The notes under the pieces were generated by a model. That model was not told the origin of the DNA. It saw only the letters and a program-made list of their open reading frames with translations, and did no database searches. From positions 1-50,989 of the forward strand of contig CAXZAJ010000002.1 in assembly GCA_964293355.1 (NCBI GenBank): a DNA stretch of 50,989 bases, in the 5' to 3' direction. Of this stretch, positions 16,797 through 45,547 are shown piece by piece (within the stretch, counting starts at the first letter, position 1; every line of letters begins with the position of its first letter). Origin of the DNA: an uncultured bacterium (GTDB lineage Bacteria > Spirochaetota > Spirochaetia > Treponematales > UBA12059). A program made the translations under genes and the position numbers.

Positions 16797-17843
16797 ATGA
16801 AGAAGATTTTACTGCTTTCAACGGGCGGGACGATAGCCGCGGTTCATGGCGACGACGGACTGGTTCCCGGTCTCGATGCGAAGCAACTGATAGCCCTCGT
16901 GCCTGAATTGGCTGGCATCTGCGAAGTCGAATGCCGGTCCATCCTGAATCTGGACAGCACCAACATGCACCCGGAAGACTGGAAGTTCATTGCCACCAGC
17001 GTCAGGGACGAGCTGGACGCCCACGACGGCATCGTCGTTTCCCATGGAACCGACACCATGGCGTTTACCAGCTCGATGCTGTCGTTCATGCTGGCGCATG
17101 TGGACAAGCCCATCGTGCTGACTGGATCCCAGATTCCGCTCGTGGAGCCTGGGAGCGATGGCCGGCGCAACATCCTCGACGCGTTCGCCGTAGCGGCCTC
17201 AGGACGCCCCGGGGTGTTCGTCGTCTTCAGCGGAAAAATCATCAGGGGCTGCCGCGCCGTCAAGGTGCACAGTGCCAGGCTCGACGCCTTCTCCAGCGTC
17301 AACCAGAGTGAGGCCGGTCGGGTGGAAGGAATGAAGGTGACCTGGAACAAGCCCTTTGAACCGGACCGGGCACCGCGACAGCTTGATATCAGCATGGATG
17401 AACGAGTGTTCCTCCTCAAGCTGGTGCCTGGCGCCGATGCCGGCATCATCGACTTCATCCGCGAGAAGGGCTACAAGGGGCTGGTGATAGAGGGCTTCGG
17501 AGCGGGCGGCGTACCCAATTCCAGGCTTGATCTCCTCGATGCCATCAGGCGGGCCGTCGATGCGGGTATCACGGTCTGCATAACTACCCAGTGCCTCTAT
17601 GACGGCTGTGACATCGGCATCTACGATGTCGGCGTGGCCGCGGGCAAGGCCGGCGCAGTTTCAGCCTTTGACATGACGCCGGAGGCGGTGGTCACCAAGC
17701 TGATGTGGGTGCTTGGCCACACGCACGACCAGGCCGAGGTCCAGCGGATGATGCTGGAGAACCGTTGCGGTGAGATTGATCCAGGTTACCGCACGCGCCT
17801 GTCCGCCCTCGTGCGAGAAATTCCGCCCGGGGTCAGAGCTTGA
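16797..17843 (+). CDS. ansA: L-asparaginase, type I (cytoplasmic)
   Basis: MKKILLLSTGGTIAA (TGGTI motif), HGTDTMAFTSSMLSFML, VLTGSQIPL. The last four codons plus stop (GVRA*) are supplied by a copy of the abundant word. Confidence 0.85.
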   Translation: MKKILLLSTGGTIAAVHGDDGLVPGLDAKQLIALVPELAGICEVECRSILNLDSTNMHPEDWKFIATSVRDELDAHDGIVVSHGTDTMAFTSSMLSFMLAHVDKPIVLTGSQIPLVEPGSDGRRNILDAFAVAASGRPGVFVVFSGKIIRGCRAVKVHSARLDAFSSVNQSEAGRVEGMKVTWNKPFEPDRAPRQLDISMDERVFLLKLVPGADAGIIDFIREKGYKGLVIEGFGAGGVPNSRLDLLDAIRRAVDAGITVCITTQCLYDGCDIGIYDVGVAAGKAGAVSAFDMTPEAVVTKLMWVLGHTHDQAEVQRMMLENRCGEIDPGYRTRLSALVREIPPGVRA

Positions 17844-17942
17844 CCATGGCCGGCCAAAATTCAAGGCGTGGACAGGGACAGAGCTCGATCAAGCGCGACC
17901 AGGTTTCAGGACAGCAACCTGGTCAGCAACGGGGACAGAGCT
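17829..17942 (+). repeat. Cluster of three direct copies of the abundant word at the ansA/truA junction (17829-17840, 17875-17885 with A at the first G, 17931-17942)
   Basis: Read directly. Spacing is 45 and 57 nt. Confidence 0.95.
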
Positions 17943-26841: not shown

Positions 26842-27846
26842 TCACGACATCAGTGCTTCGATGCGCTCCATCTGGTCCGTGAGGTCAACACACTGGTTCA
26901 TCCAGTAGCTTTTTGACCCCCAGCCTTCAAAGCGGTCGAAAAATCCACGATCCGAGCGCTGCTTCGCTTGCCAGGCGATGAAATGGACCATACGGAGCAA
27001 TCGCAGCGGTTCCACGAGGGTCAGAGCTGAGCGGTCGAAAGGCATGAACGCTTCGTAGCCTTCTATAATGAGGCCGAGTTCGTGCCGGCATTCGTTCGCC
27101 TGCCCCGGGAGGAGCAGCCAGAAATCCTGCACGGCTGGCCCCGAGGCTGCATCGTCGAAATCGATGGCCAAAAGCCCCGATTCCGCACGGTCAAGCACGT
27201 TGCCGCGGTGGAAGTCGCCATGGAGGCGTATGGGGTCTGTTTTCTCGCTTGCCAGCGCCTGGTCTATGATTGATGCAGCCTTTCTCAGAAGCGGTTCAAG
27301 CCGCTCGACAGCCTCGGGGTGCACCGAGCCACGTTCAAAAATATACCGGAGGTACGAATCGGCGAGCCCGGGAGCGATGCACACGCGATGGTGGAATGAC
27401 CGACTTGTACCGATGGCATGGATGCGCCCTAGAAGCGCTCCGAGTCGCAGCCAGTCCTCTTCGCGCTCGGCATCGAACAGGCGGCCGCCACGCTTTGGAA
27501 AAAGTGCGAACGGAAAAGCTGTTTCCTTGCCTTCAACTTCCAGAATGAGTTCCGGCAATGTGCAACCATCGAGGTCGGGCAACGGTGCTGCTACCGGTAT
27601 CTCCGCCGCGGCAAGTTCGGACACAAGGTCATGCTCCTCCAGGATGGCTTCGGAGGTCCACCGTCCAGGTCGATAGAATTTGGCCACATATTCCACCCCA
27701 GAGTCGGTTTTAAGTCCGAATACACGGTTGGCATAGCTCGGATACGCAAAGAATGAGCCGTCCGGCTCGAGGCCAAAGGCCTCTCCTACCGCTGACAGGG
27801 CCAGATCTGGTGACAGTTCGTCGAAGGCGGCAATCGGTTCGGTCAT
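26842..27846 (-). CDS. srkA: Stress-response Ser/Thr kinase SrkA/RdoA (YihE) family
   Basis: I prefer ATG 27846 (MTEPIAAFDELSPD). YANRVFGLKTDSGVEYVAKFYRPGRWT, LHGDFHRGNVL and DFDDAASGPAVQDFWLLL are collinear with E. coli SrkA. Confidence 0.85.
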   Translation of the reverse strand: MTEPIAAFDELSPDLALSAVGEAFGLEPDGSFFAYPSYANRVFGLKTDSGVEYVAKFYRPGRWTSEAILEEHDLVSELAAAEIPVAAPLPDLDGCTLPELILEVEGKETAFPFALFPKRGGRLFDAEREEDWLRLGALLGRIHAIGTSRSFHHRVCIAPGLADSYLRYIFERGSVHPEAVERLEPLLRKAASIIDQALASEKTDPIRLHGDFHRGNVLDRAESGLLAIDFDDAASGPAVQDFWLLLPGQANECRHELGLIIEGYEAFMPFDRSALTLVEPLRLLRMVHFIAWQAKQRSDRGFFDRFEGWGSKSYWMNQCVDLTDQMERIEALMS

Positions 27847-27916
27847 TGATACAGGGTACCGGTTTGCAGCATGCCGGGACAAGGTGGCAACGAGCGACCA
27901 TGTATGAATTAGCACC

Positions 27917-27978
27917 GGGGACAGAGCTTCGAAGTGGGCAAATCTTCGACGAGGGACAGAGCCCGCCCCTTCGAAGCT
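27917..27978 (+). repeat. Two direct composite units (abundant word followed by the palindrome CTTCGAAG) immediately 5' of the Y1 transposase gene
   Basis: GGGGACAGAGCTTCGAAG (27917-27934) and AGGGACAGAGCccgcccCTTCGAAGCT (27952-27978). AGCTTCGAAG (27925-27934) and CTTCGAAGCT (27969-27978) are mutually complementary. Confidence 0.9.
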
Positions 27979-27983
27979 TAATT

Positions 27984-28002
27984 TTTCAGTGTAAAACTGA
28001 AA
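27984..28002 (+). other. Perfect 7-bp hairpin TTTCAGT-gtaaa-ACTGAAA, 32 nt upstream of the transposase ATG
   Basis: Read directly. IS200/IS605-type Y1 transposases act on sub-terminal hairpins, and IS200 carries a hairpin in its 5' leader. Confidence 0.5.
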
Positions 28003-28034
28003 GCGCCAGTGCGCGGCACATCGTAGCAGAGGGC

Positions 28035-28562
28035 ATGAGAACATTAAGGTATCTACAGGACGGTGCTCTTTACCATGTTTCGGCTCGTGTGAACCGGAAA
28101 GAAATGATCTTCGATTCGCAAGAAATGAAGGATCTGTTTCTCGAGGTATTGGAGCGTGCCAAGAGCAAGTATGCATTTCGGCTGGAAAATTTCTGTATCA
28201 TGGGGAATCATTACCATCTCATGATACAGCCAGAAGGTGCAACCAATTTGTCCAGGCTGATGCAATGGATCATGAGTGTGTTCGCCATGGCGTATAACCG
28301 AATTCATGGACTGGTAGGTCACCTCTGGGAGAGGCGTTTCTTCTCTCGGGTGGTAAATGGACTACGGAATTTTCTTAGGTTGTTTGAATATATTGATGAA
28401 AACCCGGTAGAAGCTCATCAGGTGAAGCATGGACGGGACTGGCGCTACGGTGGTTTATGGCATCACAGGGCTGGTATCCCAAGGATCTGTGCAAGGTCGG
28501 GCGCCTTGCTCGGGTTGATGCTACCGGAACATACGCAACTCATGTTGACGGATACTCGCTGA
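28035..28562 (+). CDS. Y1 (HUH) tyrosine transposase of the IS200-like / REP-associated (RAYT, COG1943) type
   Basis: 175 aa from ATG 28035. HUH motif GNHYHLMIQ. Catalytic-Tyr region LFEYIDENPVEA. The gene and its 3' flank are visibly AT-richer (about 45-50% GC by hand count) than the surrounding DNA. Confidence 0.8.
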   Translation: MRTLRYLQDGALYHVSARVNRKEMIFDSQEMKDLFLEVLERAKSKYAFRLENFCIMGNHYHLMIQPEGATNLSRLMQWIMSVFAMAYNRIHGLVGHLWERRFFSRVVNGLRNFLRLFEYIDENPVEAHQVKHGRDWRYGGLWHHRAGIPRICARSGALLGLMLPEHTQLMLTDTR

Positions 28563-28625
28563 TCACGCCTCGGTTGATCTGGTAGATCCTTCGGTTCCTC
28601 CCCTGAGTTTTCCACAAACCCATAG

Positions 28626-28652
28626 AAGACCGGAAAAGCTTAACGGTTTTTT
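28626..28652 (+). terminator. Weak candidate terminator after the transposase gene
   Basis: AGACCG-gaaaagcttaa-CGGTTTTTT. The stem is only 6 bp (including one G-U pair) with an 11-nt loop. A second T-run is at 28662-28668. Confidence 0.25.
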
Positions 28653-28827
28653 GCCCTGGCATTTTTTTCTGGATCTATTCTCTGCTAAGAGGCCTTCACA
28701 ATTGACTCTGCATGGTTCTGGAATGATACTTCCGGACCGTCACCTGTCTGGCGTCGAGCGCGAATGGTGATCAAGCGGGCGGGACCGTGACACTTGGCGC
28801 CTTTTGAGGGTATGATTCAGCAACTGC

Positions 28828-30735
28828 ATGAACATACTATCCCTCGATGGCGTCTCGAAGACGCTCATAGGCACGCCGCTCTTCCAGGATGTCTCACTCG
28901 GCATAGAGGAAGGCGAGCGTATCGGCCTGGTCGGCCGCAACGGTGCTGGCAAGTCAACTTTTCTCCGCATACTTTCAGGATCGCTTGAACCGGATGACGG
29001 TACCATTGCGCGTAAGCGCGGTCTCCGCGTTGCTGTGCTGCCGCAGCTGCCTGTTGCGCTACCGGGGACAAAGCTGGCCGAATTCCTGTACGGAGGGGAT
29101 TCGGACCTGGCGAGGCTTGTGCGCGACTATGAGGCCTCCGTTTCTGGAAATAGCACGAGCGGGGTCAGAGCTACTGACAAGCGGACTCTCGATACTCTGC
29201 ACGCCAGGATGGAGACTGAAGGCGGTTTTCTGCTGGAACGACGCTTTGCGTCGCTTTGCACGGAATTCGGGTTGCCCGACATCGATGCGTGCATGGATGG
29301 CATGTCCGGGGGCATGATAAAAAAGGCAGCTCTGGCCCGTTGCCTTGCGGACGCCGCAGATCTGGTGTTGCTTGATGAACCTACCAATCATCTGGATTTG
29401 GCCACGATAGAGTTGCTGGAGCGCAAGTTGGGCTCAGCGCCGTTTGCGTTCGTCGTCGTCACGCACGACCGCGCCTTCCTCGATGCTGTGGCAGGTCGCA
29501 TCCTGGAAATCGAACGGTCGTCGGTGTTCTCGTATCCAGGCGACTACTCGACCTTTATAGAGATGAAGAGCGAACGCTGGAATTCCCTTGAGAAGGCAGA
29601 TTCGCGGCGCGAGGCTATCCTGAAAATTGAAATGAAGTGGCTCATGCGTGGGGCACGGGCAAGGGCGACAAAGAGCGAGCGGCGCAAGGACCTGACCAAG
29701 GGCATGCAGGCTTCCGCCCTTGAGCGTCCGGTGCCCATGGGGTCGTTCTCGTCCAAAACCAGACGCATGGGACGTAAAGTTCTTGAGCTTAAAGGGGCGG
29801 CGAAGCGTTACGGTGAGCGGCTTGTCTTCGAGCCGTTTTCGTACGAATTCGTCAAGGGCGACCGCATCGGCGTCGTTGGCCCTAACGGTTCGGGCAAGAC
29901 GACCCTGCTTGGGATGATCGCTGGCACTCTGGAACCTTCGGAGGGTTCGGTGGAGCGGGGTGCCAACACCGCTTGCTCGTACTACGGCCAGACTGCGGCA
30001 GGTTTGCCGATGGATGTCCGCATGGTCGATTTCATACGGAGCAGGTCGGAGGTTACGACCCTCGGGGACGGAGCTGTGCTTGATCCCGAGCGCCTCCTGG
30101 AGCGATTTTTGTTCGACCGCACGATGCACGACCAGCGCCTCTCGACCTTATCGGGCGGCGAGCTCCGTCGGCTTCAGCTCGTGTCAGTGCTGGCCGAGCA
30201 TCCCAACCTTTTGATACTCGATGAGCCGACGAATGACCTCGATATCGACACGATAGAACTGCTCGAAGATTATATTGATGCCTTCGAAGGCTGTGTCATT
30301 GTCGTGTCGCATGACCGCGCTTTTCTGGACGGTGTCACCACGACGACCATAGCGATAGATGCGTCGGGGCGTGCGTTGCTGTATCCCGGTCCGTATGGCG
30401 AGTATCGTGAATTCCTGGACGAGGAAGCGGAGTCCAAGGCGCTTTACGAAAAGGCAGAAGCAGAGAAGGGCGAAAACGCGCGGCGATCCAGGGACAGAGC
30501 TGATATTGTTGACAAGCCTCGTAAGCCCACCTGGGCCGAGCGCAAGGAGTACGAAGTCATAATCGACGAAATCCAGACCCTGGAGGATGAGAAATTGGCG
30601 CTCGAAGCGCTGTTTGCCTCGGGTGCGGTAGCCGATGAAGTGGAGCGCGCTGGTCGCCGATATGCCGAGCTCTGTCCCCTGATTGAAACCAAGACAGCTC
30701 GGTGGGAGTTGCTCGCGGTTCTCATAGACTCCTGA
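28828..30735 (+). CDS. ABC-F family ATPase (two ABC domains plus a C-terminal coiled coil; Uup/YheS-like)
   Basis: 635 aa. Walker A GRNGAGKST and GPNGSGKTT. Signatures MSGGMIKK and LSGGELRR. Charged C-terminal helix. Confidence 0.9.
   Translation: MNILSLDGVSKTLIGTPLFQDVSLGIEEGERIGLVGRNGAGKSTFLRILSGSLEPDDGTIARKRGLRVAVLPQLPVALPGTKLAEFLYGGDSDLARLVRDYEASVSGNSTSGVRATDKRTLDTLHARMETEGGFLLERRFASLCTEFGLPDIDACMDGMSGGMIKKAALARCLADAADLVLLDEPTNHLDLATIELLERKLGSAPFAFVVVTHDRAFLDAVAGRILEIERSSVFSYPGDYSTFIEMKSERWNSLEKADSRREAILKIEMKWLMRGARARATKSERRKDLTKGMQASALERPVPMGSFSSKTRRMGRKVLELKGAAKRYGERLVFEPFSYEFVKGDRIGVVGPNGSGKTTLLGMIAGTLEPSEGSVERGANTACSYYGQTAAGLPMDVRMVDFIRSRSEVTTLGDGAVLDPERLLERFLFDRTMHDQRLSTLSGGELRRLQLVSVLAEHPNLLILDEPTNDLDIDTIELLEDYIDAFEGCVIVVSHDRAFLDGVTTTTIAIDASGRALLYPGPYGEYREFLDEEAESKALYEKAEAEKGENARRSRDRADIVDKPRKPTWAERKEYEVIIDEIQTLEDEKLALEALFASGAVADEVERAGRRYAELCPLIETKTARWELLAVLIDS
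29161..29172 (+). repeat. Abundant word, perfect copy GGGGTCAGAGCT
   Basis: Inside the ABC-F gene; read as SGVRAT. Confidence 0.95.
30667..30678 (-). repeat. Abundant word, perfect copy (AGCTCTGTCCCC on the + strand)
   Basis: Inside the ABC-F gene; read as ELCPL. Confidence 0.95.
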
Positions 30736-43024: not shown

Positions 43025-45547
43025 TCATGCTTTGATTTTCGGGCGCAGCCCCTTGGTGGGCTCGGCGACGAGGGGATCCAGTGGCCAGTAATGCCTGGGG
43101 TAGCGCCTGGCCAGCTCGGCCCTGATCTCCGGGTACGTGGTGTTCCAGAAACTCGCCAGGTCGCTTGTAACTTGCAAGGGCCTGTCAGCCGGCGAAAGCA
43201 GCTCCAGCGTCATTGGCTTGCCGCAAGCCATGGGACTTCTTGCCATGCCGAAAAATTCCTGGATTCGGGCGGCCAGTCTGGCCGGGCCGCTTGACGGGTA
43301 TGCAGGCCTTCTTCGCCGTCCGCCTGGGGTCGTTACGAAAGCAGGAGCCGCCTTGTCGATGGCTGTTACCACTTCGCGGCCCAGTATTGACTTCAGGAGA
43401 GCTTCGAGGTTTCCTGCGTCGATGACGGGGCCTGTGGGCGACAACCAGTCAGCTGAAGCGGCAGCTATCGATTCCAGAAGAGCAGAATCGGTCAGGGTTT
43501 CTGCTTCTACCCTGGCGCCTGGGGTCAGAGCTCTGTCCCCCGAGTCAGTTCGCGTGGAGAAGTATCTGGCCCGATCGACAAGCGAGCGAGCGTCCTCGCT
43601 CCAGGATAGCCAGTCCAGGCCTTCGGCTCGTAGTCTGGATGTGAATGCTGCGACGAGCAGGTCTGGCGGTACCCTGTCCAGCCGCCGTTCGCCGAGCGTT
43701 ATCACACCGGCCTTGGTTCTCACCCAGGCCGCCGCTGAAAGACCCCGCCACTCCACCTCGAGTACCGACACCGCTCCAGGGAGCAACGCGGCTCTGGCTG
43801 CGGGAACATTAACCGGCGCACCGCTTCGAATGCGGCCGAGCGGATCTCCCGCGTCCACATCCACGGCCAGTAGCCATTCGGCCCTCGGCGACGCGTAGCT
43901 GGCCTTGGCCCGCCGCCCGGAACTGAACTCCCAGTTGCCGTCGGGTAGCCGCCTTGCCAGCCTGTCCGGAAAACCAGGCGCCATGACATCGCCGATTGCC
44001 GCAATGCCTGAAGCGGCGGCCGCCGGGTTGAAGGTGCGCTGGCTGCGATGGTCCAGCCCGGATCCAGTGACCCTGGAAACCAGGCGATCCGCTTCTTTCA
44101 GTATGCGGCTGGATCGCGGGTCTCCGTACGCAGCCCGGGCGGTGCCAGCCAGCAGGCGTTCCAGGCCTGCGATGAAGTCACCATCCGCTTCGGGTGCTTC
44201 GCGCTCGGTCATGGCGGGTGCCGCGCCGGCGGCGGCATGGAGGTTCTTCTGCTCTGTCCCCGCGGCGAGCAGGGCTGCCGCCGAGCGTGGATCCGCACCC
44301 AGTGCCGCCGCGCGCCTTCCGGTTTCCATTGCCAGACCAGCGGAGTCGACGAGTCCTATGTTCCTCAGGACCGTAACCGCGGCGTCCCATGCATGGCGTG
44401 GCGGTGGATCCAACCAGCGTACCGATTCCAGGGTTGTATTACCACGGATGGCGCATTCAAGCACCACGCCAGACAGTTCTATCCGTTCGAGCTCTGTCCC
44501 CCGTGATGGCGCGAGCAGGTCAGCTTCGTTCCAGCAGCGGAGGCAGAGTCCCGGTCCCAGGCGGCCGGCCCGTCCCCGGCGCTGGTCTGCTTCGGCGACA
44601 GATACCCGCTCGGTGACGAGCCTGTTGAGTCCGCTCGGCGCATGGAACCGGACGAAGCGCGAAACGCCGGAATCGACGACAGCGCCGATCCTGGGTACCG
44701 TCAGGCTGGTCTCTGCTACGCTGGTGGCAAGTATGACACGGCGATGTGCGCCGGGCGGTGGTGCCAGTACCGATTTCTGCTCCATGAGGGACAGCGAGCC
44801 GTGGAGCGGCAGGATTCCAATTCCTGAAGGAAGGGAACCGAGCATGGCGGAAACTGCACCTATTTCGCGCAGGCCCGGCAGAAAGGCCAGCACATCGCCA
44901 TCGCTCGATCCAAGGGCTTCGAGTATGGCAGCTGTGACTGATTCTTCGAGGTATGCACCATTCCGGGGCGGCCGGTACGCGGTGGTGATGGGGTAAAGGC
45001 GGCCGGGTGCGTGTATCGCGGGGCAACCAAGATAGGTCGAGACCGAGGTGGAGTCCATGGTCGCGGACATGGCGAGTATCGAGAGCCCCTCCCGCGCCTC
45101 GCGCGCTTCCACGGCGAAGGCAAGGCCGAGCTCGCATGCCGCGGAGCGTTCGTGAAACTCGTCGAAAACCACGAGTGAAACGCCTGTCAGGAAGGGATCT
45201 TCCTGCACCATGCGGATGAAAACCGCCTCGGTGATGAATTCTACGAACGTGTCGCGGCCTGCCTTGGTATCGCCGCGGACGCGGTATCCGACAGCCCTGC
45301 CGAGCTCTGACCCCAGTAGTTCTGAAACCCTGGAAGCAGCGGAAATGGCGGCAATCCTTCTGGGCTCCAGGACAAGCGCTTTTTTCGCGGACGCTTTACT
45401 GGCGAATGCGTTCGTTTCGACGAGGTATGCAGGCACGGTGCTCGTCTTGCCTGCGCCGGTCTCGGCTGACAGGACGAGCGAGCCATTCGTGAGTGCGCGG
45501 GCGATATCGGGGAGTAGCGGGAAAATCGGCAGGTCGTCGAGGTGCAT
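43025..45547 (-). CDS. hrpB: ATP-dependent RNA helicase HrpB (DEAH box)
   Basis: 840 aa. SAETGAGKTS, DEFHERS, SATM, QRRGRAGR. The C-terminal LELLSPADRPLQVTSDLASFW...RYPRHYWP is collinear with E. coli HrpB. Confidence 0.9.
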   Translation of the reverse strand: MHLDDLPIFPLLPDIARALTNGSLVLSAETGAGKTSTVPAYLVETNAFASKASAKKALVLEPRRIAAISAASRVSELLGSELGRAVGYRVRGDTKAGRDTFVEFITEAVFIRMVQEDPFLTGVSLVVFDEFHERSAACELGLAFAVEAREAREGLSILAMSATMDSTSVSTYLGCPAIHAPGRLYPITTAYRPPRNGAYLEESVTAAILEALGSSDGDVLAFLPGLREIGAVSAMLGSLPSGIGILPLHGSLSLMEQKSVLAPPPGAHRRVILATSVAETSLTVPRIGAVVDSGVSRFVRFHAPSGLNRLVTERVSVAEADQRRGRAGRLGPGLCLRCWNEADLLAPSRGTELERIELSGVVLECAIRGNTTLESVRWLDPPPRHAWDAAVTVLRNIGLVDSAGLAMETGRRAAALGADPRSAAALLAAGTEQKNLHAAAGAAPAMTEREAPEADGDFIAGLERLLAGTARAAYGDPRSSRILKEADRLVSRVTGSGLDHRSQRTFNPAAAASGIAAIGDVMAPGFPDRLARRLPDGNWEFSSGRRAKASYASPRAEWLLAVDVDAGDPLGRIRSGAPVNVPAARAALLPGAVSVLEVEWRGLSAAAWVRTKAGVITLGERRLDRVPPDLLVAAFTSRLRAEGLDWLSWSEDARSLVDRARYFSTRTDSGDRALTPGARVEAETLTDSALLESIAAASADWLSPTGPVIDAGNLEALLKSILGREVVTAIDKAAPAFVTTPGGRRRRPAYPSSGPARLAARIQEFFGMARSPMACGKPMTLELLSPADRPLQVTSDLASFWNTTYPEIRAELARRYPRHYWPLDPLVAEPTKGLRPKIKA
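43521..43540. repeat. Head-to-head pair of the abundant word forming the 20-bp quasi-palindrome GGGGTCAGAGCTCTGTCCCC, inside hrpB
   Basis: Read directly. The two copies overlap by 2 nt around the SacI-like core GAGCTC. Read on the - strand it encodes SGDRALTPGA. Confidence 0.95.
44251..44261 (-). repeat. Abundant word, perfect 11-mer (GCTCTGTCCCC on the + strand)
   Basis: Inside hrpB; read as AGTEQ. Confidence 0.95.
44490..44501 (-). repeat. Abundant word, perfect copy (AGCTCTGTCCCC on the + strand)
   Basis: Inside hrpB; read as RGTELE. Confidence 0.95.
45303..45314 (-). repeat. Abundant word, perfect copy (AGCTCTGACCCC on the + strand)
   Basis: Inside hrpB; read as LGSELG. Confidence 0.95.

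Follow-up and report, generated by a model that had tools for sequence, protein, structure and literature searches.

A short DNA word forms a halo around a RAYT/TIRYT-type HUH-Y1 gene in an uncultured spirochaete

How does a short DNA word come to recur in the working genes on both sides of a transposase-like gene, and does the gene have anything to do with it? The question is raised by a 50,989-nt stretch of an uncultured spirochaete of the order Treponematales (contig CAXZAJ010000002.1 of assembly GCA_964293355.1), and we refer to this whole stretch as the window. Between the genes srkA and ABC-F, the window carries a gene for a small protein of the HUH-Y1 transposase kind, and all along it are copies of the word RGGGWCAGAGCT, also given as CGGGGACAGAGCTCGA and counted here mostly as RGGGWCAGAGC. 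Genes of the RAYT and TIRYT types, with which this gene is classed below, are among the commonest domesticated bacterial transposases. A first-pass annotation of the window had suggested, purely as a hypothesis, that gene and word are linked. The suggestion is now strongly supported, since nearly every related gene has the word, or a variant one or two bases away from it, on its upstream side. The same word variant also forms a halo that is centered on the gene and reaches from tens of kilobases to ~125 kb on each side.

The upstream word and the halo around the gene

Two sets of related loci were compared, one of 23 from the same order and a larger one of 51 from spirochaetes. At 22 of the 23 same-order loci, the word or a near variant lies within 170 nt upstream of the gene, and exact RGGGWCAGAGC lies within 200 nt upstream at 35 of the 51. 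In the larger set, 52 upstream words are oriented with the gene and 3 against it, and their density is 5.4/kb. For most of them the distance to the ATG is 51-68 nt, and direct repeats of two or three words are frequent. No word occurs in the 200 nt that follow the gene at any of the 51 loci, in keeping with the word-free 3′ flank that had been noted for the window itself. Loci lacking the exact word carry the variants GGGACAGTGC, GGGGACAGACC, GGGGACAGAGG, and GGGACAGTCC (ending in …CAGACC, …CAGAGG, …CAGTCC, and …CAGTGC), and these form private halos of 11 copies (ACC), 21 copies (AGG), 9 copies (TCC), and 5 copies (TGC). At 29 of 37 loci, the variant found upstream is the one that occurs most often in the 10 kb to either side. 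The first-pass annotation had staked its hypothesis on the co-occurrence of word and gene clade, and the two do occur together across 40 relatives. The 12-mer has a median of ~16 copies in genomes with a gene at least 45% identical vs ~0.5 in genomes without one, and word count follows gene clade with a Mann-Whitney p of 4e-6 (p = 0.005 within the genus), values that are not corrected for phylogeny. The word in gene orientation is a fixed upstream part of the gene throughout the spirochaete clade, and diverged genes have diverged words. In the literature, searches for the word returned unrelated primer matches only.

The window is densely populated with the word. Allowing one mismatch, GGGGWCAGAGC occurs 44 times against 2.6 expected, a count that 0 of 100 shuffles reach, and the words counted as RGGGWCAGAGC are split 20 to 19 between the plus and minus strands. 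The whole bin (499 contigs, 88% complete) contains 122 copies of RGGGWCAGAGC, of which 79 are on six contigs. The contigs were ordered on two contigs of the genus-mate G051, C10 (reversed) and C17, which abut within the region of the window, and in this order five of the six dense contigs fall within ~70 kb on either side of the gene. Density goes from 0.6-1.05 words/kb near the gene to 0.05-0.15/kb by ~125 kb and to ~0 farther out. Moving outward on the left, the values in words/kb are 0.64 (left part of C2), 1.05 (C76), 0 (C171), 0.10 (C136), and 0.47 (C169), followed farther out by 0.10 (C22), 0.08 (C100), 0 (C207), and 0.05 (C28). On the right they are 0.94 (right part of C2), 0.55 (C13), 0.08 (four small contigs), and 0.57 (C160), then 0 (three small contigs), 0.32 (C248), 0 (C152), 0.15 (C71), 0.10 (C27), and 0 (C23), with 1 word over the remaining contigs spanning ~180 kb of G051 C17. 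It follows from these densities that ~75% of the copies lie in ~7% of the genome, in a bell-shaped distribution that is roughly symmetric about the gene (~250 kb). The word had been expected to be spread over the genome; instead, it is gathered in this halo. Syntenic DNA holds 3 words over 540 kb in G051 and none over 97 kb in G040, another genus-mate, and neither genome has the gene there.

The halo peak is independent of contig ordering because the same peak was found within a single contig of a different genus. In G078, a 98% complete metagenome-assembled genome, the gene lies at 150.3 kb in 400 kb of contig C8. The words per 10 kb between 100 and 180 kb number 2, 2, 4, 9, 5, 16, 7, and 1, with almost none elsewhere, so that 46 of 50 words are within 50 kb of the gene and 16 are in the gene's own 10-kb bin. 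In the closed genome G077, 16 of 42 words are within 10 kb of the gene, and in G060 essentially all copies are on three gene-carrying contigs. The gene is central in the halo in the bin studied here (G000) and in G078, G077, and G058. Genomes with 5-8 gene copies have several halos, the flanks of the 51 loci carry 0.36-0.7 words/kb vs a background of ~0.01/kb, and none of the 77 genomes examined is word-rich genome-wide.

Some individual loci in these genomes can be described in their own right. G040, which has no words in the region syntenic to the window, has a RAYT-like gene of its own elsewhere (48% identity), and its private halo of GGGACAGAGGT comprises ~20 copies in 20 kb (C12:56478-76993). 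In G051 (region C14:108992-123239), a second-clade RAYT-like gene (49% identity) is flanked by an inverted word pair and lies ~13 kb from dnaA. A 21-nt tandem array of eight CTGGGGACAGAGCTCRCYGRY units at C1:780271-780429 of G077 is ~7 kb from a RAYT-like gene and sits in an open frame that reads as GLGTELA repeats.

Words within genes and the age of the locus

Coding status was taken from curated gene models, and a measure based on stop-free frames was dropped because such frames cover 97-100% of sequence at this GC content. Of the 39 window words, 32 (82%) lie in genes, 21 in the sense and 11 in the antisense direction and in all frames, and 7 are intergenic. A peptide motif was rejected as the explanation given that the words fall in all frames and on both strands. 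Enrichment toward gene ends is weak, with 13 of the 39 words no more than 100 nt from a boundary vs 22% expected (rank test p = 0.16). In comparison with the word-free relative G051, 18 of the 26 sites that can be aligned show no gaps and ~1-5 core substitutions, and some other word sites lie in variable linkers with indels. The Hamming-distance profile has an excess at 0, 1, and 2 mismatches, recruited from sites with at least 3. These comparisons indicate that the words in genes arose via base substitution and not insertion, and the earlier idea of a word mobilized as a unit into genes has to be given up.

Once present, the words are retained. Eleven of 12 alignable words in G048 and 9 of 9 in G049 are shared with the window, and the word cores have 4 mismatches in 150 positions at 80% overall identity (p = 3e-10) and a synonymous divergence (dS) of ~1.1. 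Between species, halo words persist far better than neutral sites do. The fifth base follows a pattern of its own and is A in nearly all other genomes and T in about half of the copies here, often where G048 or G049 has A. This A to T change is directional, occurs in parallel at many orthologous sites, and is confined to this lineage. Close pairs of words often combine one T form and one A form (4906/4952, 17829/17874, 39268/39328, and 43521/43530). The last of these pairs consists of two overlapping inverted words at 43521-43540 that make up a 20-bp near-palindrome, GGGGTCAGAGCTCTGTCCCC, within a gene for an 840-amino-acid protein on the minus strand. At 17829-17941, three direct words spaced by 45 and 57 nt reach across the asparaginase stop codon and the start region of the next gene, and the first and third of these words are common to G049.

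What kind of protein does the gene encode? The first-pass annotation had recognized a Y1 transposase from the HUH motif and the YIDENP tyrosine region, and profile searches bear this out. The sole Pfam domain in the protein is Y1_Tnp (PF01797; 2e-14, residues 12-122). The NCBIfam model REP_Tyr_transpos (NF047646) gives 82.6 bits, narrowly passing its cut-off of 80, and the IS200 model (NF033573) gives 23.9 bits, far below its cut-off of 55. Nine relatives score 76-88 bits with the former and 20-34 bits with the latter. Escherichia coli TnpA-REP (PDB 4ER8; E = 2e-5) is the only solved structure related by sequence; GNHYHLM aligns with its HMH and EYIDENPV with its DYIYINPV, which places the catalytic Tyr over Y115. 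Both motifs (HUH and Y---NP) are kept in 24 of 24 relatives, and a 35-amino-acid C-terminal tail (..FPEH.QL.L) is conserved inside the clade. The genome has one copy of the gene, one 37% paralogue (on contig C183), and one fragment, with no near-identical copies, a count that does not suit a multicopy IS200 element. By these matches, the protein belongs to the class-2 HUH-Y1 enzymes of the RAYT/TIRYT kind and is not an IS200 transposase. It shares with RAYTs the fold and motifs, the match to the curated model, low copy number with vertical inheritance and purifying selection, and an over-represented repeat of its own flanking the gene, here on the 5′ side only. A 20-40-nt GTAG-tagged extragenic hairpin repeat spread genome-wide by insertion was not found. 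From IS200/IS605 elements it is set apart by the score below the model cut-off, the lack of near-identical copies, the unrelated 3′ flanks of orthologues, and the unconserved hairpins.

The gene sits in an islet that is missing from the empty site: the srkA/ABC-F spacer is 979 nt in the window vs 70-100 nt in the genus-mates G040 and G051. As the first-pass annotation had remarked, this DNA is AT-richer than its surroundings, with a GC content of 47-50% across 27900-28650 vs 56-60% around it. GC is lower than in the flanks at most related loci too, and we read the low GC as intrinsic to the gene, a standing property of such loci and no mark of recent arrival. Orthologues occupy the same srkA/ABC-F site in two other species, with 76% (G048) and 74-75% (G046) amino acid identity. 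The ratio of nonsynonymous to synonymous divergence (dN/dS) is 0.08-0.17 overall and 0.08-0.15 between orthologues, for which dS is either ~1.1 or saturated. A dS of ~1 likewise separates paralogues that share a genome in other species. Copies of the gene family are not recent insertion sequence copies, because their dS is ~1 or saturated. The islet is old and vertically inherited and is not a fresh insertion.

The same site shows some further variation. In G049 (C13:24190-25650), it holds a PadR-like regulator and a pentapeptide-repeat gene instead of the RAYT-like gene; the words there are degenerate for ~12 kb on each side and intact beyond, as if a central block had been replaced. The G046 orthologue at the srkA/ABC-F site (C42:1755-2273) has one TAA within the matched span. 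On translation, its frame ends at residue 172, and the TAA may simply be where the gene normally stops and not a sign of damage. G046 has another copy of the gene (C222), with three upstream words.

Explanations for the halo

We consider it likely that the gene, which is present in single copy and inherited vertically, encodes a class-2 HUH-Y1 enzyme of the RAYT/TIRYT type that has RGGGWCAGAGCT as its putative cognate DNA site and acts mainly nearby. Either the enzyme alone or a complex that it forms on the words upstream of its gene would act mainly on nearby DNA, with a reach limited by the local concentration of a scarce protein or by chromosomal contact. Sequences matching the word would be favored near the gene, whether by a conversion-type drive of local range or by selection among point mutations that the encoded proteins tolerate, and the fifth base would have widened from A to A/T in this lineage. 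A bolder statement is that the gene-anchored enzyme itself writes and keeps the exact 12-nt word in the surrounding working genes, with length unchanged and within a limited distance. This may be so, and we offer it tentatively, leaning slightly away from it.

Several points weigh against an enzyme acting outward from its gene. All evidence that links the enzyme to the word is correlation, and we know of no HUH chemistry that swaps 12 nt in place at constant length. The halo is patchy, with zero-word contigs between dense ones. Beyond the window, the contigs were ordered by synteny with G051, and the left neighbor in G040 is a different one. No halo is present at 5 of 52 related loci, and at 6 of 10 variant-word loci the form that prevails in the halo is the common AGC word. 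G049 retains nine shared words without a gene at the site, although this bin is 87% complete and a copy could be missing. Finally, A-form and T-form words alternate more often than expected by chance as one moves along the window (27 runs vs 19.9 expected, z ~2.4, by manual count). Template switching from neighbor to neighbor fits poorly because the two forms alternate and do not cluster, and it was rejected.

Could the gene merely have landed in word-rich DNA? IS608 inserts 3′ of TTAC, and an IS200/IS605-like element could in the same way have inserted beside a pre-existing host word. A word directly to the left of the gene, with a single orientation and a nearly constant spacing, does resemble a left-end target site. 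We nevertheless find this unlikely. The gene is at the center of the halo in the four genomes named above, syntenic gene-free DNA is without words, and the private variants match the local gene; in addition, two or three tandem upstream words are common, the gene scores below the IS200 model cut-off, the copies are old (dS ~1) and orthologous between species, and no independent source of the word is known. Somewhat less probable still is that the word serves a different host factor, one that organizes a chromosomal domain, and that the RAYT-like gene shares or borrows the site for its own regulation. The likeness to parS/ParB and matS/MatP is real in that their sites, too, are embedded in coding sequence (by silent change in the present case), hold across species, and gather over at least 100 kb (~100-250 kb here), and in the case of ParB the cluster surrounds the binding protein's own gene. 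The present case differs in its protein family, its nonpalindromic sites, a cluster that is off the origin (dnaA is on other contigs), and several halos where a genome has 5-8 gene copies. The variants also change together with the neighboring RAYT-like gene, genus-mates that share the gene order are without the domain, and no conserved partner gene was seen beside the RAYT-like genes, whose contexts differ.

A DNA-uptake-type or Chi-type signal, kept by transformation or recombination bias with the gene incidental, would explain a different set of features. Like the uptake signal sequences (USS) of Pasteurellaceae and the DNA uptake sequences (DUS) of Neisseriaceae, the word is short, recurs at ~1/kb on either strand and in every reading frame, and accumulates by point mutation where the protein tolerates it; even the lineage "dialects" of those systems have a parallel in the change from A to W here. 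Those signals are genome-wide and come with competence machinery, whereas this word is regional, with ~75% of its copies in ~7% of the genome in place of an even spread. It also forms a halo around a transposase-like gene with which it co-varies and is tied to the gene upstream at 35 of 51 loci, and we judge an uptake signal very improbable. The same low probability applies to the halo being an artefact or foreign DNA, either mis-binned contigs of a word-rich organism or an introgressed block. Dense contigs number just 6 out of 499 and slightly exceed the bin mean in GC, and in the G040 order density falls sharply at a contig break. Set against this, no second copies of genes from the dense contigs turn up in the rest of the bin, the contigs fit G051 synteny contiguously with graded density, assembly depth is equal for C2 and the word-free contig C90 of the bin (wastewater run), and identity to G051 is 70-84% for dense and sparse contigs alike. 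The ABC-F orthologue in genus-mates, at 76-92% identity, fits the bin taxonomy, and the peaks within single contigs and the absence of any word-rich genome among the 77 also speak against an artefact.

An enzyme of the RAYT/TIRYT type with a local range of action, the explanation we favor, can also be placed among published systems of this gene family. In the view of the first-pass annotation, a RAYT disseminating a 12-14-nt word into coding DNA would be unprecedented. Di Nocera et al. (2013, PMC3733652) described RAYT-like genes with inverted flank repeats that share GGGGWSAS at similar distances, termed TIRtrons, and in some of the genomes concerned the flank repeat forms a moderately abundant family. 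Most of these genes were placed in TnpA-Y1 subclass 2.1 by Quentin et al. (2018, bioRxiv 10.1101/279083), to which TIRYT probably corresponds; the subclass consists of long proteins with C-terminal helix-turn-helix (HTH)-type domains and no REP-like structures nearby. The present gene resembles a TIRtron gene in being a low-copy RAYT-like Y1 gene with the Y---NP signature and a word at a fairly fixed distance. The first eight bases of that word, GGGGWCAG, fit GGGG[AT][CG]A[CG], and the gene-motif pairing was therefore already known. It differs in having direct copies on the 5′ side only, with no terminal inverted pair around the gene, and a 175-amino-acid protein without the C-terminal HTH-type domain of subclass 2.1. 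The gene-centered halo and the intragenic copies made by substitution are in neither of the two papers (PMC3733652; bioRxiv 10.1101/279083). A word halo written by substitution around a RAYT/TIRYT gene is not described in print for the gene family.

The other relevant system is the REPtron, represented by E. coli TnpA-REP (4ER8) and the Pseudomonas REPINs (Bertels & Rainey 2011; Bertels et al. 2017), in which RAYTs are described as spreading REPINs throughout the genome (Bertels et al.). Shared with the REPtron are a domesticated single-copy HUH-Y1 gene, vertical inheritance, an over-represented repeat of its own flanking the gene, repeat variants that are RAYT-specific, and, in some members of the present clade, inverted doublets resembling REPINs. 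In contrast, repetitive extragenic palindromes (REPs) are 20-40-nt extragenic hairpins with a GTAG tag that are inserted genome-wide, whereas the word studied here has 12-14 nt and no hairpin of its own, is 82% intragenic, is local, and is made by substitution. Where REPs within genes have been reported, they are insertions that add amino acids.

The case has consequences whichever agent proves responsible. It bears on the role of RAYT/TIRYT enzymes in the cell and on the multiplication of repeats, and it offers a readable genomic trace of the range of action of such an enzyme, in the form of words that lie in essential genes, are made by substitution, and stay constant while synonymous sites saturate. 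If the enzyme causes the halo, short DNA words would be rewritten in place and the halo would be a natural measure of how far a protein reaches from its own gene; if the host selects it, a new kind of chromosomal neighborhood would be at hand. Were the enzyme to write and keep the words as in the bolder statement above, this would amount to a locally acting sequence drive or a protein-defined chromosomal neighborhood of a kind not known in bacteria, and the parallel A to T switch would be a change in enzyme specificity copied into the halo.

Features of the locus

The features of the locus are collected in Table 1.

Table 1. Positions of the gene, its flanking features, and the surrounding words in the window
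Feature	Position	Strand	Remarks
Inner word halo	2726-50267		39 RGGGWCAGAGC on both strands, 0.76/kb
Islet missing from empty site	27880-28785		Approximate bounds from srkA/ABC-F spacer comparison
Upstream word copy 1, GGGGACAGAGCT	27917-27928	+	118 nt before ATG, gene orientation
Inverted repeat (10 bp) AGCTTCGAAG ... CTTCGAAGCT, 34-nt loop	27925-27978	+	Arms 27925-27934 and 27969-27978; lineage-specific, missing at orthologous loci
Upstream word copy 2, AGGGACAGAGC	27952-27962	+	83 nt before ATG, gene orientation
Perfect 7-bp hairpin TTTCAGT-GTAAA-ACTGAAA	27984-28002	+	Not conserved in orthologues
GAAAGC-N17-CGTA motif	27999-28025	+	Ends ~10 nt before ATG; GCGC-N4-GCGC hairpin inside
RAYT/TIRYT-type HUH-Y1 gene	28035-28562	+	175 amino acids; GNHYHLM, EYIDENPV; Pfam, NCBIfam, PDB 4ER8
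Word-free 3′ flank	28563-28827	+	265 nt; unalignable between orthologous loci

The neighbors tested are housekeeping genes and encode an APH-family kinase (srkA, with its true start at 27846), the ABC-F ATPase, a DEAD-box helicase, SlyX, PmbA/TldD, and asparaginase. Upstream of the gene, the two direct composite units of the first-pass annotation were read again as GGGGACAGAGCTTCGAAG at 27917 and AGGGACAGAGC-CCGCCC-CTTCGAAGCT at 27952. Both of the predicted stems are also present, and a fold of 27905-28040 as single-stranded DNA consists of exactly these stems (-25 kcal/mol, z = -2.8, equaled by 1 of 200 shuffles). Their proposed role as parts of the system did not hold up. The palindrome CTTCGAAG occurs 3 times in the window vs 1.15 expected, a number reached by 13 of 100 shuffles, and is not over-represented. 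Both CTTCGAAG and the 7-bp hairpin are absent at the orthologous loci of G048 and G046, and so CTTCGAAG and the hairpins are lineage-specific. Known RNA families gave no match in 27500-29000 at E values up to 1.

Some other patterns were considered and set aside. The window suggests a strand polarity converging on the gene, with 13 plus and 5 minus words on the left and 7 plus and 14 minus words on the right. This polarity is lost when C76, C13, and C160 are added, and it also failed in G060 C7 and in the profile of the 51 loci. A link to replication strand or origin was rejected on the near-equal split of words between strands, the absence of a sign switch in GC skew in the 24-33 kb stretch, and the location of dnaA elsewhere. 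A second dispersed repeat, GGAAWTTTT-N-GCACAGAGACACAGAGAAGATGAGG followed by a purine-rich tail, has ~141 copies and is the commonest 12-16-mer of the bin (for example on C4 near 9200 and 9264, and on C9, C11, C75, and C207). None of the six word-dense contigs carries it, and neither does C183, for which reason it was rejected as the REP of the C183 paralogue.

The motif GAAAGC-N17-CGTA just before the gene is found at most related loci as well as upstream of the 37% paralogue on C183. Judged by its resemblance to promoters of extracytoplasmic function (ECF) sigma factors, it may be promoter-like, and in that position an ECF-like motif would give a nearly leaderless mRNA.

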